Origin: Raillietiella orientalis
Taxonomy: Eukaryota
DNA length: 64,000 bases
NCBI GenBank assembly: GCA_036172245.1
Contig: JAYWIR010000028.1
Span: 2,542,001-2,606,000, forward strand
Direction: 5' to 3'
The notes beneath the pieces are model-generated. The model did not search any database. It was not told where the DNA came from and worked only from the letters and a program-made list of their open reading frames with translations. A program made the position numbers and the translations under genes. This document shows, in pieces, positions 4,200-63,115 of this stretch. How positions within the stretch are numbered: position 1 is the first letter of the stretch; each line of letters opens with the position of its first letter.

Positions 4200-7100
4200 C
4201 GTCATTCCCGGCGCGTGCACGGCCGGGAAGAGTCAATTTCCCCTCCTTCCCCTTCATCCCGGGTCCCTTCCATTTGCCTTTGGTTTCGTGCGCCTGCTCG
4301 GATCGAATCTCCTCGAAAAGGGAGAGCGCTGGTTCTCTAGAGGAATTCCGGGAAGCAGCTGAGCGTGTCGAGGATACTCCGCATTCTGCTACTTCCCGTT
4401 TCCGTTTTTCTCTCCTCCCCCTTTTCGTCGTCGTTTTCCTCTTCCCTCCCTTCCTCTCCTCCCTTCACGACTCAGACCTGGAACGCCACCGCCGCATCCC
4501 CTTGGGACTTTCCCCACCGCGTGAGTCGACGGGTAGCCAGGATCGCAGGAGGTACACTGCCTCACCCCCTGCGAGCCCTCCGATTCTGTGGAAATCGGCG
4601 TGAACGCAGAAGGAGGAGGAGGAGGCACCTCCTGTGGTCTCGGGAGCGTTCTTTCCCTTTCTCTTCCGAATGGGCGCTTCCCCTCCTTCCCTGGCGTTCC
4701 TGTTTCCCCGACTCTCAGCCTCCCAAAGTCCCGTCCTCTCCTGAAAGAAGAGCTCACACTCCACCGGCAGCGGCGGCACGCGCGCCTTCCATCCAGCCAC
4801 CCGGGATGCTGCGGCGAGGGATTAGGAGGTGGAGGAGGGGGAGAAGGGAGGGAGAGGAGCGATTTCTCCGCCACCGGGAGTCGCGGACTTTATCCCTCTC
4901 TTCCATTTTCTCCCTCTCTCCCTTTCCCCGCTCTCCCCTCTCCTGAACTGGATTCGCGTGCGAGAGGACGCCTACCTGAAGCTCGAATAATGCTATGCTC
5001 GGGCATTCGATCTGGAACATCTGCCGCTATCTCGCCGAGGCAGGATGCGGGAGAGCGATCCCGTCCCTGTCGGGAGTGGGTGCCGACGCTGCATCCCCGG
5101 ACAAGGTTGGGGCCATCCCCTTGGGGAAGGCGGGCGGCGGTTGCGAATGCCGCGCGAAGAGGGCGCTGAACAGCAGCCTTAGAGGTGCCACTCGTAGGCG
5201 TAAAGAAGCGAGGAAGAGGGGGGGAAACGCAGGAGGAAGGGATCGGGAAACAGCGGGGGAGAGGGCAGGCCGGGTCCGACTCCCCGAGATCGGCTCTCTC
5301 GACGGAATACTTCCAGATAATCAGGAGGGAGGACGTCCCCATTCCGGGCACGCACACATCCGAAGACTCCGTAGTCCTCCCGAAACCCCCGTAGGTGCCG
5401 CTTCTCAGACTGCGCAGCAGCGGGATGATCGACGGCACGCAGGAGACGTTCGCCAAGTGAACGACTGGGACGACACGTACATGCGGGAATGGGTCGGTCG
5501 GGAGAGAGGGAGGCGTCCGGGGGCCCCGAAGGAACGCGCGTGAGAGAGCGCGTTTTACCCTCTCCCCCCTTACCTCGAGACGCAAGCGTGGTCTCCTCCT
5601 CCTCCTCCGAGAACCTCCCTTATCTTCCGGAGAAGATGAGCCGCTTGCGCGCAAGGCCTTCTCATCCCTCGTTTGCATAGCAACGCAGCTACCGCGTCCT
5701 GTTCCCCCCCCCCCTCCTTTCTTCTCTGCGGACTGGAGGAGCAACGAAACTCGAGAGGAGAGCGCGGGAAGAGGCCGAGGCCTTAGAATCTAAGATGCTG
5801 GCCAAAAAAGCGTCTCCTGGTGTCATCCAAGGATTCTGGGATCGCTCGCTTTCCTCTGGGATGCATCCGCTCATTGCCTTCCCAGGAGCATCCTTCCCCG
5901 TCTCTCTATAGACAGCCTCTCTGGAGCCGGAACGCAAAGGTAAGCCACAGACCTCCTCGAGAGGTCATCTGGACTTCTCCCGAGACGTCCCCGCAAGATC
6001 TACGCTGGGCTGGAGGCAAAGATCGCCACGATCGCACCACACCCCTTTTGTCCCCCTCCTCAGCTCCGCTTCAAGCGACCGAGAGGAGCCAGGGATCAAC
6101 CGGGTCGGAGGCTGGGAAGCAAAGCGTCCAGCCTTCTCGCCATAGGGGCCACATCGCTCTCTTTAGCACGCGAATGAAAGGAAACGCCAGGGGGTGAGAA
6201 AGAAAGAGCCCTTCGTTCCCGGAAGGGAGGCTTGCGAAGGAAGAGACCAGGATCGGTTGCTGCGCAACAGATCCTGGTCCAGCCTTTCCCTTCCTTCTCC
6301 CACCTTTCGTCCTCACCGGCCGTCCGAGGCGTCCAGGAGCGGTGAGTCGGTTAATCCGGGAATCTATTCGAAGGACGCCTGCGGCGGGATGCGGGAAGGA
6401 GGGGGAGGGAGGTCAGGGCGAGGATCCGTAGAGTCTCTCTCTTCCCCCTTTCCGGAGGAGGTTGGGACACGCCGAATCCTCCTCCTGCTCAGACACCGGC
6501 GGGTCTCCGAAGATCCGCCGGGAGTCTCGCTGTGGCCCTTCCCCGAGAGGAGAGACAAATGGGGTAGGGGAACCGAAGGGGGGAGGGGGAGGTAGCGATC
6601 GATGCGACGGAGGACGCTTCGCCGGGGGCGAGCGGTGCTTCCGCTGCCGACCTCGAGAAGGGATTTAACCCTCCTTTCTCTCCTCCCCTCGTAGCATCCG
6701 GAGGCCAGGCCGGCTGATTCGGTCCTCTGGCAGAGGCCTTGAAGGGGGAAGACGGTGAGAGGGAAGAGAATCCCTTGCGAAGGTCACATTCGGGAAGGTC
6801 GCGCTTCCTGGGGTCACGCCCAGCAGGAAAGGAAAAGCAAATCCCATGGCAAAGCGCAAGCCTCGTCAGGGCCACAAAAATCTTATCCCAGGAAAATATT
6901 CGTCCTTTCCTCCTCCTTCTCGATTTCCACCCGCCCCCAACCTCCCTCACCCACGATTCCCCTTCCAAGTTGTCTCTCCACCCAGAAGAGCTCACGCAGC
7001 CCCGTCCTTCCTATGCTCGGGAGACGGCCAGCGCGATGCTGCTGCTGCTACTTGGAAGAGATCCTTCGTCTGGATGACACTCTCGAGAGATGTGGTGCCT

Positions 7101-12199: not shown

Positions 12200-13150
12200 A
12201 AAGGAAACAGAATAGATGGTCTCTGCGGGTGGATGGCATCTTTAGCCAAAGGTAAGAAGGAGTGCCTGCGAATTGGCGTACTGGAGTGCTGCTGCGATTG
12301 CCTCGATCGTTGCTCCCCGATTGCGTGATAAGTGCATTCCAGGAGCCACGATGGCACTCCCACCTGCTCTCAGTAGCGGCAGTGCTCTCCTGCCGTAAAA
12401 CGGAAAGCTTTTATTGGCTTCAAGATGAAAACCGAGCTGAAGATTGCCACCCAATTTCACTTGCCGAGTGGGTGCGTTTATTCCTCGCGCTTCGGAAACT
12501 CGAATATCGGGATCATCTCTAGACACCATTCGACGGGAAGAGAGCACTAGAAGCAGTGGGAAAGTCACGCAACCTCTCTGACTTCTTGATGCGTAGGCAG
12601 CAAGTAGACGGGCTCCTCGCTGCCTGGCCTTCCTCCTCGGACCGTGAATCGCAAGGGAGATCAAAACGCCTCCTTCTCATGAGCTGTCGGAGGACTCTGT
12701 CGCCTCCTGAATAATCTGCATTGCTGATGATCACGAGGATTCATCGATCCATTTTTTTGCGCCCACGCGCTGGATGTTTGAACGGGATCCGGCTGTCCTC
12801 GGTCGCTCGAGATCCCGGTGGTGGTAGAAATTCAGTCGAGGACGGAAGCCGCATTCTTCTCCAAGCATCGAAAAAATCGGAATCCTGAAAAACCCTCGTC
12901 CTGCTGTTGCTGTTGTGGCTGTCGTTGTCGCTGTTTTCGTTCCTGTATTCCTCTGAGACAATCCACTTGCGCCAGCAGCTTCCGAAGCTCGGGGATGAAG
13001 CAGGATCTCCGTTAGAGCAAGGGGCAAACCCTGACGGTGCTTTAGGATCTTCCCAACACTTGTCGAAGTAGCTCAGATCTCCCATGCGCAGAGACATCGA
13101 GCACTTTCTTCGCCAGACGACAAAGAACTATCATCATCCCTATGAATACA
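12200..13150 (-). mobile_element. Possible decayed Gypsy gag/start-of-RT fragment
   Basis: FHLEANKSFPFYGRRALPLL and GATIEAIAAALQYA resemble the N-terminus of Gypsy RT; weak. Confidence 0.3.
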
Positions 13151-13163
13151 GGAAGGCTCTGAG

Positions 13164-13664
13164 TGTTGGCTTTTCAAGTTAGAGGGCAACCCCGTAGGGA
13201 CCACCTTATGAATCCAGGAAGACTCCTCTTACGCTTGGGAGGGAATTTCAATGGGAACCTCTTCCTTATTCTCTCTGGAGGGAACCCCGTAGGGAGGAAC
13301 CGGACCTTCTCGTTTCGTCCCCGAAGGGAACCCGAAAAGGATCCTTCCTGGAATTCCTTCGCCGGAGGGAACCCACAGGGAACTGCTCCTTGTTTCTTGC
13401 TCCGAAGAGAACCCCGAAGGGACGCTTCCGAATTTTCCCTAAAGAGCGCACCCCGACGGGACCGGAGCACTTCTTGACACTCTGGAGAGGATGATAGTCG
13501 ATGAAGGTTTTCCCCCGTAGGGGGTGGAAGAAACGTCTCCATTTTCACAACCGAAGGGGAACACTGAAGGGAACCGGCTCCTTGTTTCCTGGAAGGACCA
13601 GGAGGGTCAGACTGCAATCCCAGCCAATCAACGGGACCACCTGGCTTCCACCAGTGCCGCACCC
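13164..13664 (-). mobile_element. SINE-like element copy A, body with ~40-bp hairpin array (split from its head by a LINE insertion)
   Basis: About 9-10 units of GGAGGGAACCCCGWAGGGA plus a pyrimidine linker; collinear with 49429-49570/50150-50550 and 36961-37140, and with 29970-30340 as reverse complement. Confidence 0.85.
13650..13664 (+). repeat. Left target-site duplication ACCAGTGCCGCACCC
   Basis: Identical 15-mer at 16739-16753; the flanking bases differ on both sides. Confidence 0.9.
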
Positions 13665-13766
13665 TCGAGACGCCGCACGGACGTGTTTTCCGTTAGCTCC
13701 GCGAATGGTACATCGACTTTTCTTTAGTGAGTGGTTCGCGTGGATTCGGTGGTGGCGCAGGCAGCG

Positions 13767-14764
13767 ATGCCTGACACCACCACCAATGAAGGCCAGGGAG
13801 AGATGCCCGCATCTCTTCCTGATACGATGGAACGGCCCTGTCGCCGGCAGCCATGGCTGATTAAAGGGTCTACATTGAGGAGGACTAGAACCCAGTACTC
13901 CTCTACAAGGTAGGCTATTTGTATAGTCCGGAGAGCGCGGCCGCCTTCTCGAGGGCGATGTACGCTCACGGCGTTAAACAAGAGGGCCTTCTCACAATGA
14001 CTATCGGGAGTGGGGACCAGTACGCTGAGGTGGTCTGCAAGAAGACAGACCTTGGCCAACGATTGCTGAGGTCCCCCGTTGCGATGGGCAGCGGAAGTCT
14101 CCTCCCGATCACGGTGGACCGCTCGAAAGTGGTCCACTTTCTTGGAATAACTTTGCGGATGACCAAGAAGAACGTCTGCAACGAACTTGCCAAGTACGCA
14201 ACAGTCCACGCGCTGCAGACGAAGTCCGCTCCCTTCGGGGAACACCGCGAACTTCGGGGGAGCCTCGCGGCAGCGCGAATCATTGTGCGCGACGGCTGTG
14301 GGCTGCCCCACAACATACAGGTCGCCGAGGGAACGGTAGACCTGTGGTACGTGGGGAAACCCAAATATTGCGCGCACTGCAACGCTTCAGGTCATCTTAA
14401 AAAGAGGTGTCCGAGTGTGTAGTGCCAGCAGTGCCACACCATGGGGCACACCAGTGGGGTGTGCCCGCAAAGTATCGTCCGCCTCGCGTCCGCTCGGAAT
14501 GCGAGAAAGCGCACGGCTAAGAAGATTAAAAAATTCGCAGCGAAGGCCGCCAAACAAACCGCTACCTCCGCGTCATCAGACGAGGCTGCCGTATCGACCT
14601 CAGTCTCAAGTGCTGAAAAGGTCGAGGAGGACAGCCAGGACGGATGGCAGGTAGTCCAAAATAAAATAAAGCCTGAAAAAGGCTACGAAAGCAAAAGCGA
14701 TCGCGACACGCAGCGAAAATCCGCCGCGGCGCGAAAAAGCAAAGAGCTGCCGCGTGACCGTTGA
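13767..14764 (+). pseudogene. LINE ORF1 (gag-like nucleic-acid-binding protein), disrupted
   Basis: YVGKPKYCAHCNASGHLKKRC and CQQCHTMGHTSGVC (two CX2CX4HX4C knuckles) separated by an in-frame TAG at 14420-14422; DGWQVV motif; frameshift near 13915. Confidence 0.85.
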
Positions 14765-16492
14765 CCGCATCACCGCCATCGGAAAGCTCAAGAGGCGCAA
14801 GGCTCCAGGGGAGGACGGCCTGCCTGCGGAGTTTTTCCAATGCTTTGCGGCGGAGCTGACCCCCCTGATACAAAAATCGACCCTGCTGATACGCGAAACA
14901 GGCGACGTTCCCGCCTCGTTTCGTTCAGCAAGGGTACGGCTCCTTCCCAAAGGAGGAGACCCACGGAGCATAAGCAACTGGAGGCCGATTACCGTGGTAA
15001 ACGCGGACGCCAATTGCTAGCGACACTGCGGACCGAGAGGCTGGTGCGGTTGGCAAAAAGCTTCATTAGCCCGGGGCAGCCGTATGCTGTTAGCTCCAGG
15101 CGGAGCATGGGCGCCAACCTGCTCTGCGCTAGCACCTGGTTCGTGCTCCAACAGGGAAGGGAGATGATGGGCAACCGGAATTCCGGTGCGTCCGTCGGCA
15201 AAGGGCCAAATGGTCGGGTGGGGGAGGGAGCCCTTGCGGTCGCAGTCGACTTTCACAACGCATTCGACTGCATCGACCAGAGTCTCCTGCTGGAGCTTTT
15301 GGAACGCTTGGGTTTCCCGGCTTCTGTGATGGCCTACCTCCGCTCCTGCTGGTGCGAAGCGCTCGTCAATATCTTTTTCAGCGGAAAGACGGTGCACGGC
15401 GTGCCGGTGCGATGCGGCATACGGCAGGGACACAGCCTGGGCCCCCTGCTCTTTGGCACCTATTTCTAATTGGTGCTGAGGGCATACAGGGAGACTCTGG
15501 CTCTCCAGCCGAACGATTGTCTGGGTGCGCCCGCGGTGTAGGCATACGCGGATGATAATCTGCTGTTGCTCCCCATGTCCACGCCGGCATGCGCACTCGA
15601 CGGTTTCTTCGAGCTGCTCAGTCGTGGAACGGGCCTGTTGGTGAACAAGGCGAAGTCGTCTGTGGTTCCCGCTGACGCGTCGTGGGCAGTACGGCCGGAC
15701 CGGATTCTCCTGGGGATCCCCACGGGCCGGTACTTTAAGAACCTGGGCGTTCCGTTGGAGGACTTTCGCCCCTCAGAAGCCTGATCCGGACGTCTTCAGA
15801 AAGTACTGCAGGAGCTCGGCCCGTTCCAACGGGGCAGGTTCTCCCTGCCGGAGAGGGCCGTGGTATGGAACACGTTTGTGACTCCCCTCATTCGCCCTTT
15901 GCTTTTTGTTTGCCCACCGCCATGCAGCATTGGGAAACGGACAAAGGACCTCCTCCGGATCGCCTTCTGGGGCAAAGGGCAGCCCCGAGTCCGCCTAAAG
16001 GACTTGCGTGCTCCGCGCCGAGACGGCGGCCTGGGCCTCCTGACGCTGTAGCGAATGGAGCTGCGGCTCCAGTTTCGAATCTTTGCCCTCGGGTTCGAAA
16101 CTCATGGACACGGGAGGGGGGTGAACCCAAACTGTGCACGGTGCGGAGAGCAGGAGTCCTTCCCGCACCTCCTGGTAGACTGTGTTGCCCTCCGGCCCCT
16201 TTGGGAACGCTTGGCCTTGGATCTTGGAAGCCCCGACGGCAACTCCAGAAACGTTTTAAAGCGCCTCTTCCTGAGAGATGTCCTCTCGCCGGCCGCACCC
16301 CTAGCAGCACTGTGCTGCCTGCTCGGGATCGTGGCCGCGTGGAACACCAGAGGCCACAACGATAGGGACGCCATCCATTTTTCTGTCCTCTACATAAGGA
16401 CAGCGTCAAGATGGCCCTATCTGGGAACCATAAAACAGGAACTTGCCGGCATCCTTACAAGGATGCAGCGGGCGCCCTCCAACACACAGTGA
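14754..16492 (+). pseudogene. LINE ORF2 reverse transcriptase plus C-terminal zinc finger, disrupted
   Basis: KAPGEDGLPAEFF, NWRPITVVN, VDFHNAFDCID, GIRQGHSLGPLLF, YADD (15545-15556), GLLVNKAKS, FKNLGVP, GGLGL, CARCGEQESFPHLLVDC; one frameshift and several stops. Confidence 0.92.
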
Positions 16493-16738
16493 TCCCTTCC
16501 CGAATCCCTCCCCCCCCCCTCTCTTTGACCATCCTTTTTGACTGCAGTTTTTTTGGTTTGTTCTCCTCTTTTTGTTTGTCTTCCCTTCCCTCGTGCTGTC
16601 GAGGCTCACCCTGATGGCCTGCGTGCCAGATCCCGGCAGGCTCCTTTTCGTATTCATAAGTAACAACGTGGCAGGATCAAATGTCCTGCTACAGACATGT
16701 AGGTTTAGAAATAAACGCCCCAGCGTGACCGGGTGTCA

Positions 16739-16897
16739 ACCAGTGCCGCACCCGAATAGTCCAACCAGCGTCATCTTGAGTGAGGAACTGGAAAACCCAC
16801 GACGCACCAATTTCTCAGCATCGATCCTCCACGTGGGAATTCGAACTCGCAACGCTTGACACCACCCGCGGAGACCTCAGCCGCGAGGCCGCCAACG
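16739..16897 (-). mobile_element. SINE-like element copy A, tRNA-derived head (includes right TSD 16739-16753)
   Basis: The minus strand reads TGGCGGCCTCGCGG (A-box-like)...GAGTTCGAATTCC (B-box)...GATGACGCTGGTTGG...GGGTGCGGCACTGG, as in the other copies. Confidence 0.85.
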
Positions 16898-17299
16898 CAT
16901 GCCATTTGCAGTCTCCAGAAATCACCATCGCGTGGGGCTCCACGTGAAAGCCAGCAGCTGCCAGATAAAGCGTCTGCAGACAAGCAGGCCACTTGTTCCA
17001 CTTCTGGTGCCGCCTAACAGTTGTTTTGGGCGGCTGGCTTTCGCAGTTTTCCTTGCCTCCCCTTTGATACGTGCTAACGGGTAGCTGCGCCGCGGGAGGG
17101 ATGCTGGATGTCCCTACCGGATTCGCACACTCGAAAAGGCGCACTTCGTTAACTGCGAAGTCACCGTGACCAAGCGCGTCCGAGAAACGGAACTTCGGCG
17201 GAGGAAGTCCCCTTCTGGAGGGAAGAGTCCTGGGTGCATCGCTCCTACATAACTTTTTTGCCTCCCGTCTTCCCTGGTTCGACAGGGATCACGGGAGCT

Positions 17300-28900: not shown

Positions 28901-29825
28901 ATGTGCAGGATCGCTACTTCAGCTCAAGAGTAGCAGTAGCAGAACCATCTGCAGGATTGCTTTTCTGAAGAAAATTCAAGAAAAATGAGACTGAAAATGT
29001 CGATTGTTATCTGAGTCTGGAAGATAACCATGAATTACGGGAAAAATAAACGCAGGATGCACATGAAAACGGAAGCCTCACGAAACATCCAGCGTTAGTC
29101 AAGGAAAGCACTGTCCACTCCGAAGAAAACGGAGGCGCTCGATTTCGAGAAGCTAAAGTTACGTATCCGCATGATGAGAAAACATCTCGGAAAAGATAAG
29201 GGAGGATCGACCTCCAGTAAGCCAGCCAGCAAATTGGCTTGTCTGAACTCTTAAGAAGTAAATCATACTCGCTGAGAGGAAAAAGAATGGAGCTGCATGC
29301 GAAGGAATAGGCAAGCGGCATCATAGCCCGGAACTCAAGGCATTTTAGAAACCGCGGAAGTCGGTTTCTGTAAATTCCTGGATCTGGAACGGAGGCGGAC
29401 TCCCTACCTCCCTTTCTGGAGCCCTCTCAAACCGCACCACAGAAAATCCCAGCCCTTCCGATTGAATTTTCCTCAAGAACGTGGGGAAGCAACCGCGCGG
29501 AACAAGGGCGTTTTTGCGAAACTTGTAGGTCTTCGGAAAGCCAATCGCCTCTTTGGCTGCAATGACGCAACTCGTGCCGTAGGGCGTGGAAGATCAAACG
29601 TGGACTCCGCAAGCAAGCATACCCTTCATTTTGGAACCTTATGAAATCGTGCCGTCGCTCGCACGGCTTCTGCAGTGACCCCTGTCCGTTCGGTCCAACT
29701 TCGACAATCTCCACTCCACGGCCACTGGCGGCCACACACATCTCCGAACGGTTATACGTGGAACATGCCGTTGGAACACACGTAATGCTGGAGCCTCAGA
29801 AAAATCTGTATGGTCCATTGCCCGC

Positions 29826-30340
29826 GTCGGAGGCCGTGTGGTTACGGTGGTCTCTGCGTGTGGCACCACGAAGAGTCGCGGGTTCGAATACTCCGAAGGA
29901 ATGGGCACATTGCGTCGTGGATTCCCAGTTCACCCCACAGGATGACGCTGGTTGGCCTACATTCATCCGGGTGCGGCACTGGCAGCGGCTGAAACCGGAT
30001 GCCCCCCGATGAGGGCCGGGACAAATGGGAGCCTCCGGGTGCTTCCAGCAATCACGGAGTGGGGGCTCCCCTCCGGTTGTGAAGGAGCGAACCCCCCATT
30101 CCGGGGGGGACCTCTCCTCGTCGTACTGATGGAGTAGGTGTGTCGCCACCACCTGTCCAGAGAGTGCAGAGAAGCGCGCCTATCCCTCCGGGGATTCTGC
30201 GTCCTTCCGGATTTCGGAGGCATCCCTTTTGGGTTCTCTTCAGAAGAGTAAAAGCAGGAGCGGATCCCTTGCGGGGGATCCCTCCGGAGAAGAAATTCCA
30301 GGATCGGATCCTTTCCGGGTTCCCTTCAGAGAAGAAGCTT
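29826..30340 (+). mobile_element. SINE-like element copy B (tRNA head plus hairpin array)
   Basis: B-box GGTTCGAAT at 29881, GATGACGCTGGTTGGCCT at 29941, GGGTGCGGCACTGG, then the hairpin units. Confidence 0.85.
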
Positions 30341-32616
30341 TCAACTTGAACTAAACAGCAATGGAACGCAGGCATTTCGACGTCGTTTGTGGAGGAGGAA
30401 AAGCGTTAGTGAATATTTGCACAGCTGTAACAGAATTCCTGGCTGCGTGTCTCGGAAAATCTCTTCTCGCTCTGAAGACTGAAGATTGCACATCTGAAAC
30501 TTTTGTTGTTGTTTTTTTGGAGAAATTGCACGCGCACTTGCTTGAGGCAAGCTTGGTTTTTGAAACGGCTTACTGAAATCCTCCTTTTCCTCGTTTGAAA
30601 CACGTTCCCCCCCGCCCACCCACCCTTTTTTTCTTTCTTTTCCCAACGCAGGTTCTTGTAGATATTGAAGAGCTTTTCAATCGAGGCTGTGGTATTTCTT
30701 TGGAACGCTCTCTTTAGCCTCATTCCTTCGCCGTGATGGGAACGGAGCGATCCGAGCACCCGTTTCCGGGTGTATGTGATCGATTTCCCCCCTTTAATAT
30801 TCACTTGGAGTAATACAAGGAATACGTTAGTCCTTGCTTTCGTGCTATAGACGTGCTAGGAAAATATGATATCATTTTCCAGAGTTGGGAGTCGTGCTGG
30901 GTTTCAATAAACGATCAATAATTATCTTTTGGCATTTTGATTCCTGCTGGCGATCCTGCTCACGGAAGTTTCGTGAGTGCTCCCTCCTCCCTTCTAGCAG
31001 TCAAATTCGCTCCAGAGGGAATGCAAGCAAATCGTGAAGGGTTCAAGTAAGCATCAAAGGGTATCGGAAGTTTTTTGCTTCTTTTGTTTCTGTTTGTTTT
31101 TTTCGTTTTTGCCCAAGGAAAAATTTCGAGTTCCTTTCATAAAACTCTGGAATGCGAAGCCTCCGCCTCAACATCGAGGGAGAGTTACGAGGAGAAAAGG
31201 ATATTCTGCAAGTGGAAAATGCCCGACTTGGCATCCCTGATTTGGCACATCGTTTTTTACAGGGATGCGAATACCGATGCTTGTTTGCTGCTACCACATT
31301 TCGAGAACGCAGTGGCGACTTACTTACTTACTTACTTACTTGCGTGGTATTCATCCGAACAGTAAACTTACTAGCTGATCTTGTATTGCACCTTTCTTCA
31401 TATTTTGGAACATCGGCACCGTGCAAGAGCGATTCCAGAAAATAACAAGAAAGCATCTCGGTTGTTGCTATACTAATGATGAAAAGTCTGCGTTACTTTG
31501 AAAGAATACAGTAAACTGAACACAAATTTTGTCATTATAATTTCTCACATGTTCTCTTATCGAAGATTCCGTCATTCTTCTGTCACGAATGCGCCATTCC
31601 GGAAAAGAATAGATTCTCCCAGAGTTACTGCACAATTATATATATCACTTTCTTCATCGATACGTATGTGTTCGGTAGTGCATAGTGAGTATCTGTTTCT
31701 AAGTACGTAGTTATACAGTCGTGTATCCGTGAGAAGATGTGATCAACATATATATATACGTATGCGTATGCGTATGTGCAGTAGTCAAGCACTTACACCT
31801 TTCACCCCCAATATGCGTAGAATGCTCTCTCTCCCAGTCAAACGCGGTGGTATTCGAGAATCTTCTGTAGTTAATACATTTCATCATCAAAATTCCTGTT
31901 CACCAGATCCATGAACGTTGAAAGGGTTCAATAGCAGGAATCACGGATATTCTTCACCGATAAGCCCAGAAGAATTCCTTGGTGTAGGGGAACATCGCAC
32001 GGAAGGGGTCTTCAAGCAGTTTTATTGATAATAAAGTTCTTGTAGAAGCACTTGAAGGAAGGTACTCTTGACACAGAACTCGTAATCGATGAAGTCTCCT
32101 TTACATCAAAGGAACATAAGCAAGTACTTAATAATAGGCGAGCACCCATGTGAAGACTTCAAAGTCGGCTCTCGAGTTCCGCATACTGTCTTGGAATAGG
32201 TCCTGTCACTTGTAGTTTGGAAAATCCCAAGAAAAATGGCTTTGTCAGCTGAGTCGCTGTGCTGTCTGGGCATTCTTTTCGGTCATGCTTGTTACTCCCA
32301 CACGACAGTGGGAGGGCAACTGAAAATAGGCTTCAGAAGAATCGAGGATGATGGGCTAGAAACTGAGAAGGCTACCGCAGCACTTTCCTTTCGTTCTTCC
32401 GTTGTCATCACTGGAGACCTCAAGAGCGCACTGATGAAGACGCCGTGATGGGAATCAGGGAGAATGCAGAATCTTCTCTCACTCTTAAGAATGGAGACAC
32501 AGCAAGTTAACTCTGCCAACAAAAGGATCGTCTGCTCCTTCATGAATGGAGGTGAAGACTGAAAAGTCTCTGCAAAGAGAGGTTTTTTATTACTACTCCG
32601 AAGACTGTTGCATTTT

Positions 32617-35600
32617 CATCCGGTCACACCGGAGCGTTTATTGTAAAAAAATATCTACAAAAAAAACACAGTCATATGCAAGATAAGGAATGTCTTCCTT
32701 CGTAGTGGTTTCACATCACCATTACGAAGGGAGGTGCCTCGGAGGCCCTGCTTCTCGTGAACAGCTTCGCAATGAGGTTCGCACAGGAGAAGGGGGGGAG
32801 GGAAGGTAAACAGACGAAAAAACACCAGAGTTAAAAGGTTTAAAAATGTTTGGGAGAGAGAGAGTGAAGGGATCGCAGATTCCTTCCTGGCGTCCTCAGC
32901 AACCTCTTGAGTATGTTGGTAATTTCCTCCTTTTCTTAGCAGAGAAGTGGTCATCTTGTCGCCTCCCTCATGAAGAAGCAGATGACTGGGATGACCTCAC
33001 CGTATGACTGGCCTCTTCCAGCGCTGCTTCTCACCGCCCCGATCCCACAAAGGCAACACAAAGGTGCAGGGAAAGCTGCAGGAGACTTCGCGTCGCGCGC
33101 AAAGAAGCACCGCAAAACCTCTTTGCGGATTGCCCATCGGGAGTGGAAGAGCGGCAACAAAGTGTTCCCGGACATTCAGGAGGGCAAGGCAATCCAACAA
33201 CAGGTGCGGGAAGGTTTCCCCGTTTCCCACACCTGGCATAGCCTATGGCCGCACTCTCCCTCGTCCACTGGTTGACTCGTGCGTTGCTGGGATCGCCCGG
33301 TGCAACAACTACAACGTCGAGTCCTGCCACTTCAGGGGAAGCGAGAGATGTCTACTGCATAGGCAACGAGGAGAATGAGAGTTGATAATTCTCAGGTCTG
33401 TTGCGTAGTTGGAGAGTTGGGGAGATGCACAGAGGCAAACTCGTGCCTTCTCATCGAGATCCAGTCATCTTCCATCTTACCTATCCCTAAATCATTCCTG
33501 GGAGCTCCCTCGCGAGGCTCGAACATCCTGTAAATCTGGGGTTCTCAAGGGCAATCGCCTAAAGAGACTTCCACCAGGCAGGCCCACAGTGTTTTCTCGT
33601 CTCTCTTGGACACTCGAGAGACTTCGATCAGCGCGAGCTAGGAGCTTTCCCAGGATGTAACAACGTTGGACCTGAGAGATCCACAACCCTCGCAGTCAGG
33701 AAAAGTACCAAGGACCACCACCCGCATCACGTCCCGTTCCTCTGATACTTTCCAGCCTCTTTCAGTTAACGGGCCCGGCCCGCTGGTCGCCAGAGTCACT
33801 TTTATCCTCCGGAAAGCCGCTCTTCTTTCTGGGGCAGCATTGGAACCACAACGAGGCTTGCAGGAAGAACGCAGGCAAAAGAAACCTGCGGCTCAGTGAG
33901 GCGCCTGACGCCGCCCTGGTTAGAAGTTTCCGTCCTCAGGAGCACACGGGCGAGTAGAGGTGCCACCGGCCCCTAATTCTGCAAGGAGGGGCTTGAGGGA
34001 CACGGAGAGAGACAAATGCAAACTTGCCTGCTTGACTCCCTCGGGACACTGGAACGCCCCGAGTTTCAGTCGAGCTACGGACGCGCTGACCGAACACCTT
34101 TAATGCGTTTACCAACCAGCTGGAGCCGCGAGCCGCGAAGGAGGTGGGAAGGGATGCAATTCACGAACGAGCTTTCCAAGGATGGGGAGGAAGCAGTGGA
34201 TGGTGACGAGGTCAGCGTCCTCTGTCCGGCGCTCCAGGAGCAGAAGGCAAACCCACGAGCCACTGCTCAACCGGAGCACCCTCCACCACTGATGCAGCTC
34301 CGAGCACAAAATGCGCAGACTAAAGTCCGGCTGTGGAGTTCCCTCCTCCCCTTCCCTTCCCGAGTGTGCGGAGAAGGAGAACCCGAGCTCCGCCGAGAAG
34401 TGGGAATAAATCCCTCGACTCCTATGACGAAGGGACAACCACGGTGAGAGTAAACTCATGGAACCGCAGGGGAGCTTCGAGTAAGACGCGATCCCTCGGC
34501 TCACGCCTCCTTCGCAAGCCCCGGCGGAAAGAGCACATTCCCAGAGTCCAGAAAAAGTGGCTTCGCACTTGGGATTCCCAGAAGTTCGATACTGCTTGGT
34601 CGTCCCCTTTTCGAGAAGACCTCCTTTGGAGTCCTCGCCCCAAGATATATTAGAAGCCCTCCCCGGTTCCTCATCGCGGACTCGTCCCCCTCCTCCATCC
34701 CCCAGTGGTCCGCCCAAATCATCCACGGAGCGCGCAGTCTTCCCGGCGCTCCCGGCAGTCGCTCTCTGGTGACCGGACGCCGGAGGAAAATTCCGCCTTC
34801 TGCTATCAGGTTGCCCTCTCACTTCTTAGGCTCGTTTCGGGGAGCGAGCTGCCGCTTCCCACCCTGACAAAGTCGCTGTTATCTTTAGGACGACCGCAAT
34901 GCATCCCCCTACCTCAATCACCCCTTCGAGCTGGCAGTCCTATCACCGAAGCGGTAATCCCGGCACTCCTGCTGCTGCTGCTCTCTGAATCCGCCTGCCT
35001 CCCGCAGGTTGCATGGACTCGCGTGCCTTGTAATCGTCCTCTCTGGTGCGTCTGGACGCGTGCAGGTTCCCTTCTTAACGGACTTCCTAGAGGTAGTCCT
35101 GTGTGACAGTGCGGCAGACAAGCTTCCCTTTCACTCTTCAGGTTGTCTTTGTATGTCCCACGGAGGAACTTGGCACTTACTCCCCCCCCTCTCTCCTCCT
35201 AAGGAGGGAGGAAGTGCTGAACAACCTGCTGTGGAGTGCTTTTTCCAGACGTGCTGTCGCATTCGTCCCGAAAAAGCAGCCCTCCACCAGCAGGTTGTCG
35301 CGCGCATAGCTTGGTACTTCGTGGTCATCCTCTCTTCCATCTTCACAGAGGGGCTTTCTTCTTTCCCATCATCTTGAGGCTTTGGCATCGTTTACGGCCT
35401 AGACATCATCGAGGGGTAGTCGGCCCCTCGCGCCGCTGGCATCCTCTTGTTCTCGGCTAAGTTGGCGGGAGCACCGGACGCGCATAGTTTGCTTTTCTTG
35501 GCGCTCCTGGTATTCCGCCTTCGACACCGTTAGCAGTGCCCGACGAACGCACCCTCCGGCATCCAGCTGTTTCTCGTGGTCCTTCGGCAACTTTCAACTC

Positions 35601-36530: not shown

Positions 36531-36960
36531 CGCATCGGGCGGCAGGAACATCTCTAGGCATTCGACGACCTACGATACTAGCTGACTTCCTTGGACGAGC
36601 GCACCCACAGCACCGTGAAGCAGTTACCATGAGCACCGACATGACCCAGATGACTCTGACTTTCTGCTCTGCATCTCAGCGTAGCTGATTCAATCAGCCA
36701 GCACTATCTCAACCACCGTGAGGTCGAGGTCGCTCATCTGTGCTCGGAGAAGGCCTCATTCGTTCATCCGCCTCAACAGCCTCTCCGGAGAACGTGCGCC
36801 GAGAGGAAAACGCCCATTCGAGGGGAGGAGGGATGAGTTTTTCCGCAGCCAGTCTCTCCCTCTGGCAGTACGTGTCCTTCCGGGATCGGCCGGAGAAAAC
36901 GGTGGGACCGATCGCCACTGGTTGTGGCGTGCGAGCTCCCTTCCCCTTTCTTCTTCCACC

Positions 36961-37290
36961 TTAGAGGCAATTCCTGAGGAGAGTATCAACCAGCTCCATG
37001 GTACGCTATCGTACGGATCCATTTTCACCACCGGAGGGAAACTCCGTAGGGAACCACCTCCTTGACTCTTGCGAAGACCCTGGAGGATCAATTTCTAATC
37101 CCGGCCGATTAAGGGGGGCATCCGGCTTGCACTGGTGCCGCACCTAGAGTCTCCAGGTCAACCAGCGTTATCCTGTGGATAGGACTCGAAACCCACGATG
37201 CATCCCCCATTTCCCGGTGTCGACCTTTCACGCAGGGATTCGAACCCGCAATGCTTCGCACAACGCGCTGAGAATACACGGCCGCCGATG
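36961..37290 (-). mobile_element. SINE-like element copy C
   Basis: Minus strand GCGGGTTCGAATCCC, a second B-box-like GGGTTTCGAGTCC, and GATAACGCTGGTTG; body collinear with 50365-50560. Confidence 0.85.
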
Positions 37291-38599
37291 AGGGCGAGGC
37301 TTCCTTCCGGGGTCCATCCTGCCGCGCAAGGGAGGGTAGGTGGGAAGAGAGAGATGACGGTGCGGTGAAGGAGGAATTTTCCAGGTATCTTTTGATCACA
37401 GCGTTGGATCGAGCGAAGAAGGGCGCCTCGTCCAGCCTTCTTCGCCACCGAGACAGATGGTGCCTTCAACGCAGCACCCACTGGGGAGGCGCCAGAGCCC
37501 TTCCTCACGTGCTTCCTAGATGCACCAGGAGGGAGCGAGAACTGTCGAGTTTCGCATTGGGCGTCGAAACTCGAGACTTGCCCGAATGAATGTTCATCCC
37601 TTCCATCCGCCTTCTCTCTGGAAATCTTCGGCTCCTCCCGGGAGGAGGTGAAAGCCGAAATGGAGGAAGAGTGCCGCCATCATTCCCATGAGCCATTCCC
37701 AGTCGCTGCGAACTGCGGAGGAATGGCCCCAACTGGGACGTGAAACACCAGGAAGCCTCGGGTTGATTGTGGTTGGACTTGCTCGGAACCCGCAATAGGA
37801 GGAGCCTCGTTCCTTCCACTCCCGTCCCTGCAGAAAGCCCCTGGAAATCACGCTTATCATCTAATTCCTATTTACTTCTTCACCGTTCATTTCCTCTCTG
37901 GTTCTGTCTCCAGTGAGGTTTGAGTCATTTGTTTTTGAGTAGGGCTGCGTCCGACCGTGTCGGACACTTCCTTGGATCGAAGACTGGGAATGAAGAGTGC
38001 CCTCCGCTCGTTGTCCTCATGAATTCCCGGACGTTCTGAGGATTCTATTTGTTTATTTCAAATAGATGGTCAGAACATCCAGGATGAGAAGGTACCTTCT
38101 GCTCTTGGAAGAAATGGTAGCAGCAACGCGCGTTCCATCTCCAGCACGAGCAGGGAGAGCACACCGATGAATGTCTTCCTCTTCTTGAAATCCCTCAACG
38201 CCTAACAGTAACGATTCTTTCGAACTGGAACGCTTCCAGAAAGAATCCTGCTCTCCTGCGTCGACAGCGCTCTAACACTGAATCAGAGGAAAGAGCAGAA
38301 TGTTCTTGCAATTTCAGCGTTTATCCCGATTCCGTCTCCCTCTGAGATCCATCCCTTCTCCGACATAGGCTGACACAGAACAGGAATGAAAGCCCTACAC
38401 TCAAGTGGGTGACTGCGCGATGACTTTGTGGCCAAAACTTTTCTTGCGAAACGCACATGACTGTCGCGATTCAGAGCCGCCACCTTTGTTTTTGCCTTTT
38501 TTGGAATGCCATGGTGATGAATGGAAGCAGGAAATGGAGAATCGAGAACTGTCCGACGTCTGTCAATCTTGTTAACTTATTCCAGGGGTGCGATGATTT

Positions 38600-41949: not shown

Positions 41950-42480
41950 GGTGAGTTCCATGGGGATTTCTTTAGGCAGGTGGGGGTCACCTCTCTATCC
42001 TCATGAAGAAGGCAGCTAGACGAATGACTTCCTGTTGCCACGAGCGGAGCTTCAGCACAACACGAGGTGTCCTCCGTCGAACAGAAAATGCCTTGGACCA
42101 CGACGCAGTAGATGTTAATTGCACGGCAGATCCTTCCGTCAGGAGCACTCCCGATGAGATCGCCTACCACTGTGGTGAAAACAGGTTCAGACGGCGGAGG
42201 AAAGATGTCTTTGCTAGCCTTTACTGCCAATGGAGACTCGACGCAGATCTGCCTCGAGACGAAAACTAAGGAGATGCCCACCATCTGTACCCTGTCCTGA
42301 TACGAATGCAAGCAAAGCTGGAATATGCTGTACAGTAATCGTGAACTCCTGTTAGGAATAAGGTCTTCGAAGTTGTCAGGAAAGTCAGTTCACATGATAA
42401 AATCAGTGAAAATTGAAGTGGAGGGGAGAGGGAGGACCATTTCGACCGGCTGCCAGGATCCCTCATCCACGGTGGCTTCG
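41950..42480 (+). mobile_element. Decayed Gypsy RT N-terminal fragment
   Basis: RSPTTVVKTGSDG (cf. ASP.V.VKK.DG), MPTI, KVF. Confidence 0.35.
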
Positions 42481-42485
42481 CCCAC

Positions 42486-42590
42486 GTTGGAGGCCATGTG
42501 GTTGCGGTCTCCACGCGTGGCACCAAGCGTCGAGGGTTCGAGTCCCCCCTCAAGATGACGCTGGTTGGCCTATTCGGGTGCAGCACTTGT
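42486..42590 (+). mobile_element. SINE-like element copy D (head only, single B-box)
   Basis: TTGGAGGCCATGTGG..GGGTTCGAGTCC..GATGACGCTGGTTGGCCTATTCGGGTGCAGCACT. Confidence 0.85.
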
Positions 42591-42655
42591 TGACACCTAG
42601 TTGCGCCGGGGCGTTTATTTATAAAAAATAAACATTACCAAAATAAACAAAAACC
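42591..42655 (-). mobile_element. Extreme 3' end of the Tx1/L1-like LINE, joined to SINE copy D
   Basis: Minus strand AATAAACGCCCCGGCGCAACTAGGTGTCA, followed directly by the SINE target site as at 16710-16753. Confidence 0.75.
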
Positions 42656-45002: not shown

Positions 45003-45516
45003 CGGCGCAGCTTCCCAGAGAAAATTCCAGGAGAGCTGCACCCTAAAAGTTCTCAATAACCCTTGAAGGCTGTTCGATCATCCTTTCGGGAGACACACAA
45101 AGAGAGGTAGCGGTAGGGAGTGGAGGATCTTTCCACAGGTTCCGTCGATTCTTCTATCTCTCCCTCTTTGCTTGCCATTGAAGAGCTGTTGCATGGCGGA
45201 TGTTCAGGAACGGGTATGTTCCATAGTTTGGTGAGGGACTAGAGTTTGCTTTCCAGGAAGCCAAAGGCCTCCAAAGAATGACGAGACAGAAACTTTAGAC
45301 TGACTGCTGCAGCCATGGATGAAGTAAGAAAAGCAAGTGATTATTTGCCGTCCCAAAGACTTCGTTTCAGACGGCGCAGCTTCCCAGAGAAAATTTCAGG
45401 AGAGCTGCATCCCAAAAGTTTTTAATGGACTCTCGAGAGCATTGGTTCGATCATCCCTTCGGGAGGCGCATAAAGGAATTTAGCGGCGTGGAGCGAGAGA
45501 TCTTTCCACAGCTTCC
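45003..45516 (+). repeat. Diverged direct repeat, ~140 bp (45003-45143 and 45372-45516)
   Basis: Both copies begin CGGCGCAGCTTCCCAGAGAAAATTYCAGGAGAGCTGCA and end GATCTTTCCACAGSTTCC; offset 369 bp. Confidence 0.9.
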
Positions 45517-49059: not shown

Positions 49060-49350
49060 TTTGAGAGGATGCCACCCTCAGCATCCGCTTGCGGAACCGA
49101 GAGCCGCGGGTTCGAATCCCCTGAAGGCGATCGACTTCCGAATTCGGATGAGCCGCATGTTTCGAGCCCCTAAGCAAGATGACGCTGAGTTGACTCCAGG
49201 CTTCAGGTGTGCATGGATAGGGCACCGCGGTGTGCACCTGCTGCGCTCCGATGCTCTGTTGACTAGCCAAGCTTGGGAGAGGACCCTTCAGCGTTCTCTC
49301 CGGGAAATACGAGAGCGGTCTCTCCTCTTCGTGAGCACCTCCGACGCGCG
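49060..49350 (+). mobile_element. SINE-like element copy E (head plus start of body)
   Basis: GCGGGTTCGAATCCC (~49106), TTTCGAGCCC and AAGATGACGCTG, then sequence matching the reverse complement of 13553-13640. Confidence 0.75.
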
Positions 49351-49428
49351 ACAGTGGAAGAGCCATGGCAATGCTGTCAAGCCGCTCTGACACCCGTAGG
49401 GCACCGTTCCACACCACCGGGGGGTGCT

Positions 49429-50697
49429 TGTTAACTCCTCAAGATAGAGGGTTCCCTGGGGGAGAACCACCTTATGAATCCAAAAATGGCTCCGGAAGAG
49501 GGGGTCCGTTCCTTTCACGCCTAAGAGGGTTCCCCGAAACGACCCTTCCACCCTCGTTGTCTCTGATCTCCACCCGGATACGCGGGGAGTTTATTGAAAT
49601 TTAAAAGAAACAAATTGTGGTAGAACACGTGGTCCTACCACACTCCGTTTGTCCATGGACATTCCGGGTCGCCGGTGAGCGGACCGGCAGGGCCTACCTC
49701 GGCAGCAGAGGGGAATGGGAGAAAACAAAAAGAAAAAGAAAGAGTAAATAAAAATAAACAAATAAAAAGCTTTGGGAGGATCGGGAAGAGATCACTGTCC
49801 ACTGCATCCTTTCCAGGATGCCACCTAGGTCGGTCCGAATAGGCCCCAGGTGTAGGCCATCTGGCTGCTATCCGCACAAAGCGAACTGCGAACTGGACGG
49901 CGGCCCTCTCGTTTCCTCCTCTGTAGGCTTCGCGCTCCAGGCCGCCACAATCTCGTGGATGCAGCAAAGAGCTGCTAGTGCTGCGGCTGGCTGCAGCGCG
50001 TCCCGCACAAAGAGAAGCCGTGAAACGCCCCTGCGGGTGTCAACCGGTATCTGGAGGGTCGTTCTGAAACGTTCCTATAGGGGTCGGAAGGCAACATAGT
50101 CCACGAGCAGGTGCGGAAGGGATTCCCGTTCCCCGCACTGAAACGGTCCAGACTCACTCTCCCCAGCGTCTCCGAAGGGAACCCCGAAGAGATCCTCTTC
50201 CTTATTCTCTCTAGAGAGACCCTCCTAAGGGATCCGCTCCTGAAATTTCTTCTTCGGAGGGAGTCCACCGCTCCTTGTTGCTCCTCTGAAGAGAACCCCG
50301 AAGGAACGCTCCCAAATTTTTCTGAAGGACGCTCCCCGAAGGCGGCAGCGCGCTTCTTACACTCTGGAGAGTCAACCCCTCGAAAGAGAGATCAACCAGC
50401 TCTATAGTACGCCATGGTACGGCTTCATTTTCACCACCGGAGAGGAATCCCGAAGGGAACCATCTCCTTGATTCCTGAGAGGATCCCGGAAGGTCAACTT
50501 TCAATCCCGGCCAGTCAAGGAGGACATCCGCTTCCACTGGTGCATCCGAAACCTACAGACCAACCAGTATCACTATGCCGGGGGACTCGAAACCTACGAC
50601 GCACTCCCCATTTTTGGCGTCGATGCTTCGCGTGGGGATTCGTGCCCGCAGCGCTCGGTACCACGCTCAGGGGCCTCAGCCACGCGGCCGCCATTAT
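49429..50697 (-). mobile_element. SINE-like element copy F (49429-49570 plus 50150-50697), interrupted by a LINE 3' fragment
   Basis: ACCACCTTATGAATCCA shared with 13200; array units collinear with 13255-13600; tRNA-like head at 50560-50697. Confidence 0.85.
49571..50150 (-). mobile_element. 5'-truncated copy of the Tx1/L1-like LINE
   Basis: Minus strand encodes CGERESLPHLLVD..AALAALCCIHEIVAAW; T-rich 3' UTR; terminal AATAAACTCCCCGCGTATCCGGGTG (49571-49595). Confidence 0.85.
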
Positions 50698-51249
50698 GGG
50701 CTTCTAGAGGGAATTCTAGACCATTTGAAAAGAAAAAAGAAAATGAAAAAAAAAAGATCGAGGAAAAACGTAGAAAGCAGCAAAAATGAATCAGTATTTT
50801 TAGATCACTAGTAACGATCTTTTCTGAGGTCACTACTGATCTTTAAAAACAAAAAAAAAAGCAAAAAATAAAGAAAAATAAAAGTCAGGGATCTCCATGG
50901 ATGTCGTGAACTGGAACGATCCGCGAAAGCCTCTTCGAAAGAACGACCTAATGCAGTCAAAGATGCAGCTGGGACCTGGAGGTGGCTACTGCCCTGGAGC
51001 GCGAGCCTCCTCTTATTTCAAAGTGGCGATTCCCTTTCCTCTCCTTGCTGAGAAAAACTGCTTCATCCTGCCAAAATAAAAACAAACACGAACACTTTGA
51101 AAAGCAAACGAAAACGAAACAGTCGACTTTCTTGACTGGTACAGTGCTCTCCCTCAGGAAGACGCTCCGGGCTCTTCAATTGCAGCACGGGTACGTCCGC
51201 ACCAGACCCTCTTCCAGAACGAGTGGAGTCAGGTGCAGAGAGTAGTGAG

Positions 51250-57100: not shown

Positions 57101-58861
57101 GGAACTCGTCCGGTTAGTCCCGGACGTGTTCCGACATCCGATGGCTTCGACCAGGTCTATCCTTGGTCCTGCCTCCTTTTATTTCTACGTTTACTGCACC
57201 ATAAGTGCCTCAACGTGAGCAGGTGGGACAAAAACGAAGGTCGATGTCGTTCTTCCCATCCGGTGGCGCCCGAGAGCTGCTTTGGGACTGGATGCTCACG
57301 CATCTGGTATTCAATGAGTAACTGGTAAAGGCGGTGACCTGACACTGGAGGAAGAAGAGAAAAACGGCCATTTTGCTATAATCGGGGAAAACCCCATCTT
57401 CTCCGAGCTGCACAGCAGTCACTCACCGCCTACATCTCATTTACCAATTGGTAACGGAGATCGATAGCTGCTCCCTGGTCGATAACATGTCCGATACCGA
57501 GCACTTTCGGTAAAAGAACAGACCACGTGCAGCAGCAAAAGAACTTCGCTCCGCACTTTAAACGGCTGAAAACGAATACTGTTCACGAACGCGGAAAAAA
57601 GAAAAAGAAAAAAAAGCAAAGAGGACCTCGTGAATGATAGGGTTCAATCACGCCTGGGAGAGAGGTCACAGCTTGAGCACGGAGCGCTTGAAATGGAAAG
57701 CCATCTTCGATACGAGGCCAGTCATCGCAAATGTGGAAAGCGTGGACCATGGAAACACCCAGGCAACGCGTGGTGTGTGTGGTTCTGCTGCCGAATTTCG
57801 CCCCTCGTTTCATCTCAAATTCAAACCGGACGGGCATGTTTTTGTTTTCTCCCTTCTTTCTTTCCTTTCTTCTTTCCACTTCCTCGACAGAAATTCGGGA
57901 AAACGAATTCGAATCGCTCGAGGGGAGTGACTCTCGTTGAACCGAACACAACCGTGCAACAGTTGGGAAGCGCCAGTTTTCTGATCTTCAGAACACGATT
58001 CCAGCCTCTTTAGCAGCCCAGGGAACGTGAAGGAAAAGGTGAACCCAAAACAACTTCGTGGGAACGGTGCACGTTATGGACAAAAAGTCCGCGCACACTC
58101 GCGGCGAGCTGTGCAGCTTCAGTACGAATAAAAAGTTTGAGCAAAAATTTCACCGGAAATGCAAGCGGTCCTGCCGTTCCCAGAAAAAGAAAAAAACGCC
58201 TGCGTAAATAAATAAATAACACAGACCGGAAAGTTTCGTTTAAAGTTTTAAATAAAGTTTATTATAAAACTTAACCATCAATGTACAACGATTTAATTTA
58301 AGACGACGAAATCTGGAAGAACTCTCTTTCGTATAAATAATACCTGAATCTGCAAGTTTACTCTGGAGTAATGGCACCGCTCGTGAAAGGGAAGAAGAAA
58401 AAGAAGAAAAAAAAAAAAAAAAAAAGGACAAAGAATGTAATGATTTTCTTCTTATGAATCGATCGTTACTCCGAGGCGTATATAAAAAAATAAAATCATT
58501 CTTTGGTATGAAATTTCTTGAAAAGGAAAACCTTCCGTGATCGGCACCGGATGTTTGAAAAGGAATTTAAAAGATGGTCAGCTAAGCACTTTAAGAAAAT
58601 TCCTCGTGGGCTGCACTGCTGCTCATTCGTTTTCTTCTAAAACGGGAAAAGCATTTTGCAAGTTACGTACTCTGCACTTATAGGAAACAACGACAAACCT
58701 CTGCACCGCTGTAGCGTTTTCGGGTTCACACTGCAGTTCCGAGGGCGATAAGGAAGCCCTGAAAAAAAGGTGAGAATGATTTCAGAACCTCCTAAGCAGA
58801 GGCCAGCTAGGTCTTTTTGGGTCAACGTGCAGCGCGAGGGAAAACGTCCAGGATAACTTAC

Positions 58862-59646: not shown

Positions 59647-59689
59647 CTGGATGCAACAAAAATTGATTTCCACGGCCTCCTTCGGTTAC

Positions 59690-62431: not shown

Positions 62432-62463
<32 letters not shown>

Positions 62464-62516
62464 GCACGCACGCACGCACGCACGCAGACGCACACGCACG
62501 CACGCACACACACACA
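62432..62516. repeat. (CA)n/(CACG)n compound microsatellite
   Basis: Seen directly. Confidence 0.98.
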
Positions 62517-63032
62517 ATGCAAGACTTTTTTCTACCCCCTTGATTGGAGCGTTTCCTTGACCGATCGTTTGGGCACAACGAATATGTACTGTGGAAACGA
62601 ACACAGCTGAATAAGTTTCATAAAAATTCCCGTTCCGTAAGGGACCCGTAAGGGTTCCGTAAGGGCAAAAGAGGCGAACGTGCTGCGTAATGCCTGGAGC
62701 TTCAAATTTTGGTTTCAAAGGAAGCGTTCCACACTTCAGGAAGTTGTCTACAACAAGTTCCCCGTATAGATCGACAGCTTCTCACATTATAGGTGGCTCG
62801 AACCTTTCTTTGGACACGAAGGACACGCAACTGCACGAATGCACTAAGAACACTATACTCAGCTCTCACCGACTTGTTAGGACGTCGACAAACCGCGTGC
62901 TTCTATGCCTTGACAATAACCAAAGGGGAAAATCTAAAAGCCATCAATGAAATCAAATGACAAAGGAATCAGAGATCCATCAGCACGTGTGAACTTTGCT
63001 AAAGTAAAATTTGTATGTATGTATACATATGT

Positions 63033-63034
<2 letters not shown>

Positions 63035-63110
<76 letters not shown>

Positions 63111-63115
63111 GAGAG
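63035..63115. repeat. (GT)n(GA)n compound microsatellite
   Basis: Seen directly. Confidence 0.98.

Follow-up and report, generated by a model that had tools for sequence, protein, structure and literature searches.

Results

A dispersed, non-coding repeat at 13.2 kb

The locus at 13.2 kb lies within a 64-kb stretch of DNA, the whole of which was analysed and which we refer to as the window. The element at this locus reads on the minus strand and is made up of a head of ~210 nt, most of which falls outside the interval 13164-13664 initially considered, and a body of ~470 nt. Eight copies or fragments of it are present in the window, five on the minus strand and three on the plus strand, with lengths of ~190-680 nt; the long form, at ~680 nt, is non-coding. 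We refer to them as copies A to H, and they are listed here together with a retrotransposon relic that lies among them:

13610..13816, minus strand: head of copy A, with an A-box-like motif, a decayed B-box region and a conserved central block (head profile E 3.7e-33; alignments)
13140..13607, minus strand: body of copy A, ~9-10 degenerate units of 37-62 nt (body profile E 1.1e-99)
near 13164-13185, minus strand: 3' terminal motif of copy A, a 3' end common to copies B and H
13889..16492, plus strand: degraded non-LTR retrotransposon between copies A and E (Pfam zf-CCHC E 0.02, RVT_1 E 5.4e-6, zf-RVT E 0.0096)
16709..16930, minus strand: copy E, short form; head, then GCGTTTATTT, then an A/T-rich end
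29795..30350, plus strand: copy B, long form; head to 30030 and body from 30030, with fewer units than A
near 30182 and 30262, plus strand: stable hairpins of copy B (fold tests of unit windows)
36933..37311, minus strand: copy C; head at 37090-37311 (exact B box at 37236-37246), followed by part of a body
42465..42655, plus strand: copy F, short form; head at 42465-42620 with an exact B box at 42535-42545, and an A-rich tail
49069..49230, plus strand: copy G, a diverged head whose B box at 49109-49119 is exact (head profile E 8.2e-14)
49425..49570, minus strand: copy H, a 5'-truncated fragment that aligns with copy A at the 3' end (exact match over 17 nt, E 3.6e-4)
50160..50723, minus strand: copy D, long form; head at 50496-50723 and body at 50160-50493

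When the 13.2 kb locus was compared with the window by BLAST, relatives were found at 30.1, 37.0 and 50.2 kb with identities of 69.7-74.8%, and across the alignments the pairwise identity among copies ranged from 69.7 to 79.6%. These dispersed copies had been proposed in the original prediction and are real: their cores and linkers align, with the order kept. We then built two profiles, one for the head from six copies (copy A included) and one for the body from copies A-D, and searched the window with nhmmer. Seven heads matched the head profile (E 5.8e-55 to 8.2e-14), and four bodies, those of A, B and D and the partial one of C, matched the body profile (E 5.8e-103 to 5.6e-33).

The copies come in two length forms with different 3' ends. 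In the short form (E and F; ~190-220 nt), GCGTTTATTT and an A/T-rich tail come after the head, and the long form ends in a specific motif that is common to A, B and H. At the other end, six of the seven heads start their similarity near GCCC..TTGG, and the DNA upstream of the heads is unalignable; head G is the one whose 5' end is not recognisable in the alignment of seven heads. No terminal inverted repeats are present in A, B or D, and on this ground we rejected a MITE. We also searched the flanks of five copies for target-site duplications, allowing one mismatch from 10 nt, and found no exact flank match of at least 7 nt; the copies are old and their ends uncertain. What copy F is missing is precisely the stretch that separates the two B-box-like motifs described below, owing either to a recombination deletion between these motifs or to descent from a monomeric, older form of the head.

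Searches for relatives elsewhere returned little. Rfam gave no match in the window at the gathering threshold, and at E<=5 there were only sub-threshold miRNA-like and snoRNA-like matches, none of them inside the element. A 20-nt motif from the body, compared with metagenomes, matched three loci over 20-22 nt each, and we set these aside as chance matches. Within the window, two segments of ~145 bp at 45003-45143 and 45372-45516 (plus strand) are repeated 369-373 bp apart with 78-91% identity; the pair has words of 10-12 nt in common with the body and no match to either profile, and was likewise rejected as a relative. On the head strand, a stop-free frame of 172 amino acids runs through the body of copy A (13174-13692, minus strand). 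No frame of at least 150 amino acids covers the bodies of B or D, so a coding origin of the body was rejected, and we take the frame in copy A to be a chance product of TA-poor repeat DNA.

Surroundings of the element

The window is DNA of a eukaryote and has a GC content of 51.6%, a CpG observed/expected ratio of 0.89, which is near expectation, and a TpA ratio of 0.48, which is strongly depleted. The non-LTR relic between copies A and E is recognised through Pfam matches that all fall below Pfam's own cut-offs, and the sole protein relative found for it is a 63%-identical reverse-transcriptase protein from a metagenome. A fragment related to the relic is located near 33160-33219 in inverse orientation. 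No link between the relic and the dispersed element was found: the relic lies on the other strand and has no sequence in common with the ends of the element, nor does the 64-kb window contain a LINE 3' end resembling that of the element.

A myosin-XVIII-like tail exon occupies 58858-59685 (minus strand), with further coiled-coil frames on the same strand to ~62617. Its best named relatives are from insects and a crab, at 35-45% identity (crickets are best, at 45%), and in the protein atlas Arthropoda is the commonest phylum; on these grounds we refer to the host as an arthropod-like animal. No representative in a library of 1.84 billion proteins exceeds 45% identity, so the host lineage seems to be poorly sampled.

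Two other features of the window were noted. At 4814-4943, a long purine-rich arm pairs with a pyrimidine-rich arm, and the segment gives a dozen sub-threshold matches to Rfam miRNA families, far below gathering, that are most likely due to composition. The region 62432-63120 contains (AC)n, (GT)n and (GA)n microsatellites, and its AC and GT runs form a long inverted pair ~520-560 nt apart.

The head contains promoter-like motifs

Heads C, F and G have an exact B box, GGTTCGANNCC, at homologous positions, and head B has it with one mismatch (four of seven heads). A second B-like motif, GTTTCGAG(T/C)CC, lies ~55 nt downstream of the first in three of the seven (C, D and G). A-box-like motifs are seen in head D (TGGCTGAGG) and head E (CGGCTGAGG), each matching the A-box consensus at ~8 of 11 positions, and that of head D starts ~37 nt upstream of the first B box. 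The A- and B-box motifs are thus near the 5' end at tRNA-like spacing, which is the arrangement that marks a tRNA-related SINE. Across the window as a whole, the B-box pattern shows no enrichment when up to one mismatch is tolerated (25 matches versus 19.2 expected).

No tRNA itself could be recognised. At default settings ARAGORN reported none in the window and none in the six heads A-F, and at relaxed settings it assigned inconsistent identities to the heads; the majority consensus of the seven heads was called tRNA-Glu-like only at a relaxed threshold (-ps90). The Rfam tRNA model had no match at E<=5 in the window or at E<=10 in any of the four heads searched alone, and the heads had no tRNA, 5S or 7SL match in the Rfam searches. 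In the four long copies, the head strand contains two runs of four or more T versus 12 runs of four or more A. Such rarity of T4 fits a template of RNA polymerase III (Pol III), which must avoid T4 terminators. The boxes and the rarity of T4 together support the presence of tandem Pol III promoter boxes in the head, as judged from sequence; tRNA ancestry of the head, in which no cloverleaf is detected at default settings, is only plausible. As regards the tRNA-like head that had been proposed, the A-box-like and B-box motifs are there, but neither ARAGORN at default nor Rfam sees a tRNA, and most of the head lies beyond the interval in which it had been placed.

These observations bear on whether the element is a Pol III-transcribed SINE at all. 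It could instead be a dispersed repeat of another kind, such as a non-autonomous retroposon with a different promoter or a larger element of which one end has been sampled recurrently, in which case the B-box-like motifs would be due to chance or be relics. The failure of any head to match tRNA, 5S or 7SL and the failure to find target-site duplications would both fit this reading, as would the length of the long form, which is at the upper end of SINE sizes, and the location of copy A, which abuts the LINE relic, with copy E at the other end of the same relic. Against it, six of the seven heads begin their similarity near GCCC..TTGG with unalignable DNA upstream (head G, with its unrecognisable 5' end, being the seventh), and the relic is on the strand opposite to A and E, with no sequence in common with the ends of the element. 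The recurrence of the B-box motifs at homologous positions, the avoidance of T4 runs on the head strand and the existence of a short form with an A/T-rich tail also argue against it, and we regard this reading as unlikely.

The classification as a SINE, which the original prediction had put forward, is by contrast supported from several sides: the element is multi-copy and dispersed in both orientations, has box motifs, a short form, a 5'-truncated copy and a near-absence of T4, and is accompanied in the window by a reverse-transcriptase relic.

The body is a degenerate array of fixed order

Downstream of the head, the body is a very degenerate array of units of 37-62 nt, arranged in an order that is fixed across copies. 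On the head strand, a unit comprises a core TCCC-TNCG-GGG, a second core TYCYC-TYCR-GAG ~12 nt further on, and then a linker rich in purines, for example AAGAAATTCCAGGAGC. Judged by eye, the spacing of the cores is 37-62 nt. Tandem Repeats Finder reported no array at 13100-13700, even at a score of 30. The autocorrelation of copy A peaks at a lag of 39, where the value of 0.336 compares with a shuffle maximum of 0.312 +/- 0.011 (9 of 300 shuffles were as high); the corresponding lags are 84 for copy B (16 of 300 shuffles as high) and 114 for copy D (1 of 300). The periodicity of the body is therefore weak, and above that of shuffles. An array of units of ~40 bp had been claimed for this locus, and the claim holds to the extent of this weak autocorrelation and of the spacing seen by eye, but not to the extent that a tandem-repeat program detects it.

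The number of units varies, with copy A having ~3 more than copy B. The cores and linkers of different copies align in one order, and this shared order of units and linkers indicates that the array was fixed in the master element before it was dispersed.

Tetraloop-like hairpins in the body

RNA hairpins closed by a C(UNCG)G tetraloop are unusually stable, and motifs of this type had drawn attention to the locus. All those listed are present on the minus strand of copy A: CCCTACGGGG at 13190, 13285 and 13513, CCCTTCGGGG at 13319 and 13412, and CTCTTCGGAG at 13400. The two described for copy B are also present, with ATCCC-TCCG-GGGAT starting at 30182 and GGATCCCT-TGCG-GGGGATCC near 30262. The sequence CCCTNCGGGG occurs eight times in the window, compared to an expected 0.62, and none of 100 shuffles reached eight.

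On the head strand of the bodies there are ten UNCG hairpins with a C-G closing pair and a stem of at least 3 bp, six in copy A, two each in B and D, and none in C or H. The N of their loops is U in five, A in three and C in two. The idea that all four bases occur at this position holds for U, A and C in C-G-closed hairpins; the one example with G (copy B, near 30262) is closed by U-G rather than C-G.

Tests for selection on the hairpins

One way to account for these motifs is that a master RNA was selected for a regular array of hairpins capped by C(UNCG)G, of which the genomic copies are decayed images, the hairpins serving to stabilise the RNA or to bind a protein in several copies, such as the proteins of a partner LINE. 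The ten C-G-closed hairpins on the head strand, six of them in copy A and with U, A or C as N, are among the observations in favour of this reading. We examined it using pairing, covariation, strand comparison and folding energy.

Instances of the motif were anchored on the 5' half only (YYCYC then T), which gave 29 instances in 1,424 nt of bodies. At least three contiguous pairs, with G-U allowed, form in just 8 of the 29; in 11 there is the closing pair alone, and in five there is none. The fraction of stem cells that pair is 69.0%, versus 67.6% in shuffles (138 of 500 shuffles as high), and the covariation score is 0.077, versus 0.061 in shuffles (81 of 500 as high). With a looser anchor, full 3-bp stems were seen in 20 of 70 instances when 18.1 were expected (446 of 2000 shuffles as high). 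Neither anchor set, then, has an excess of pairing or covariation. One of the stems had been described as compensated at its middle position; in the anchored set the middle pair is U-A in seven instances, C-G in five, U-G in two and a non-pair in the remaining 15. The lack of significant covariation relative to a plain minisatellite, seen here as far as eight copies allow, is an outcome that the original prediction had itself named as counting against a structured RNA.

The loops of the anchored set give a picture that selection for hairpins would also predict. Position 2 is the most variable of the three positions scored (T 12, C 10, A 6 and G 1 of 29), position 3 is C in 21 of 29 and position 4 is G in 16 of 29, and in total 13 of the 29 loops are TNCG. 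Variability at position 2 is what a UNCG constraint would lead one to expect as well. Where loops depart from TTCG, many read TTCA or TTTG, the products expected if an ancestral TTCG underwent CpG decay.

Strand comparison goes against selection at the level of RNA. The complementary strand has 11 C-G-closed CGNA hairpins and the head strand has 10 of the cUNCGg type, so that the hairpins are equally common on both; the feature is a DNA palindrome without strand bias.

Folding energies were also compared with those of shuffled sequences. The 501-nt body folds at -185.5 kcal/mol on the head strand, compared to -188.5 +/- 6.7 for shuffles (z +0.45), and on the other strand the minimum free energy has a z of +0.67; the five unit-sized windows of copy A have z values from -0.63 to +0.60, so that neither the body nor its units fold better than shuffles (z -0.63 to +0.67 overall). 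In the best-kept unit, 13388-13430, the minimum-energy fold pairs both cores with each other in a single 8-bp stem with a UUCU loop and does not form two UUCG beads. Two of the eight unit windows tested have a z below -2, and both are in copy B. These two units have stems of 5-8 bp capped by UCCG and UGCG, with z values of -2.48 (equalled in stability by 5 of 200 shuffles) and -2.89 (equalled by none of 200); they favour selected hairpins, and they alone form hairpins that are clearly stable. The extended stems come from GGATCC palindromes that flank the core, and the corresponding units of A and D do not preserve them. Folding A, B and D to a consensus gave a covariation term of +0.73 and a structure other than an array of beads.

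Taken together, the beaded and highly structured RNA that had been predicted finds no support in pairing, covariation, folding energy or strand asymmetry, and the consensus fold is not bead-like. We see no sign of selection for RNA structure in the mini-hairpins. The four to five decayed bodies that are available (1,424 nt) give low power to detect selection that acted on the master gene alone, and a more specific scenario can be drawn up in which a master gene encoded a Pol III RNA of ~680 nt whose body was selected as 8-10 evenly spaced C(UNCG)G hairpins, extended by GGATCC palindromes to 5-8 bp in certain lineages (for example the one from which copy B derives), the signal then being lost through neutral decay of 20-30%. 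If so, the hairpins would be a multivalent landing pad for the proteins of the partner LINE, or a protection against exonucleases. There is a precedent for conserved stem-loops in the bodies of invertebrate SINEs (PMC4758252). Nevertheless, with mismatches in the middle pair in more than half of the instances, equal representation on both strands and folds no better than those of shuffles, we consider selection on the hairpins, in the general or the specific version, quite improbable.

Discussion

A probable dead copy of an old SINE family

We conclude, with a probability of about 0.75, that the 13.2 kb locus holds a dead member of an old SINE family, and that its UNCG hairpins are a by-product of a palindromic repeat. 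The steps by which the family may have arisen can be outlined from what is present in the copies and from the class of element to which they appear to belong. In the head, the A-box-like motif and the B box ~37 nt apart, along with the second B-box-like motif, would constitute an internal promoter from which RNA polymerase III would transcribe the element. A LINE reverse transcriptase would then recognise the 3' end of the RNA and copy it to new sites. We infer both Pol III transcription and LINE-mediated copying, including the dependence on a LINE, by analogy with other elements of this class. The body would have grown in the master copy as a unit of ~40 nt, which itself holds two sub-repeats of ~12 nt, underwent tandem duplication again and again. 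Because the junction of the sub-repeats, CCC-TTCG-GGG, is a palindrome at the level of DNA, duplication of the motif would have multiplied the C(UNCG)G mini-hairpins along with it.

That the copies instead constitute a family of functional structured non-coding RNA genes, and are not relics of a mobile element, is very improbable indeed: nothing specific speaks for it beyond the hairpin motifs and promoter-like boxes, and against it are differences of 20-30% between copies, truncations, a varying number of units, decayed promoter boxes, no match to an Rfam family and no conserved structure.

Comparison with known SINEs and stem-loops

The dead-SINE interpretation places the element beside tRNA-related SINEs, which it resembles in its 5' head, where A-box-like and B-box motifs are spaced ~37 nt apart, in the non-coding nature of its body and in its distinct 3' end, and also in its many copies in both orientations, its 5'-truncated copies and its short form with an A/T-rich tail. 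It differs from them in that a cloverleaf is not detected at normal thresholds, in the second B-box-like motif and in that no target-site duplications were recovered from the five copies tried.

For a body built from repeats, a precedent in architecture is provided by the CHRS and CHR-2 SINEs of cetartiodactyls, for which the SINEBase paper uses the term 'quasioligomer' (PMC3531059). As described there, the body of CHRS is a degenerate motif of ~20 nt repeated more than 10 times, and its variants differ in the number of repeats (PMC3531059). The element described here likewise has a body made of a short degenerate tandem motif, with ~10 repeats in variable number; this is a likeness of architecture only. 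Its unit, which comprises a linker and a pair of sub-repeats of ~12 nt, measures ~40 nt rather than ~20 nt, and its host is arthropod-like rather than mammalian.

Among arthropods, Ruka of ixodid ticks is described as a SINE of ~195 bp with Pol III boxes and a degenerate head resembling serine tRNA (PMC3160391). Going by that description, both are abundant arthropod SINEs with Pol III boxes, and the size of Ruka is near that of our short form (~190-220 nt); however, the myosin gene in the window is most similar to those of insects and a crab and not to those of ticks. We therefore mention a possible relationship to Ruka as a lead only.

With respect to the hairpins themselves, the ten head-strand cases with a C-G closing pair and a stem of at least 3 bp are like C(UNCG)G tetraloops, yet the stems are mostly of 3 bp, most instances of the motif are mismatched, and the fold tests give no evidence that these hairpins are preferred over alternative folds.

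In V-type SINEs, the stem-loop subdomain Vhc is a single block of 37-39 nt conserved across phyla, in molluscs and arthropods (PMC4758252). It is a precedent for a stem-loop preserved inside SINE bodies. Compared by description, the feature here is different, namely a palindrome of 10 nt that is repeated and has no support from conservation. In the literature we found no account of a SINE with an array of tetraloop hairpins or with a body combining minisatellite and hairpins; the papers found on UUCG or tetraloops and SINEs concern B2 and 7SK/7SL.

Implications

There is no sign here of a new class of RNA, and the locus also offers a caution: a palindrome that has been tandemly duplicated mimics a designed array of tetraloops until it is compared with shuffled and strand-swapped controls. 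At most, the catalogue of repeats known from a poorly sampled, arthropod-like lineage gains one SINE family, with two length forms and a body built from repeats, which would be of use for repeat masking and for the dating of insertions.
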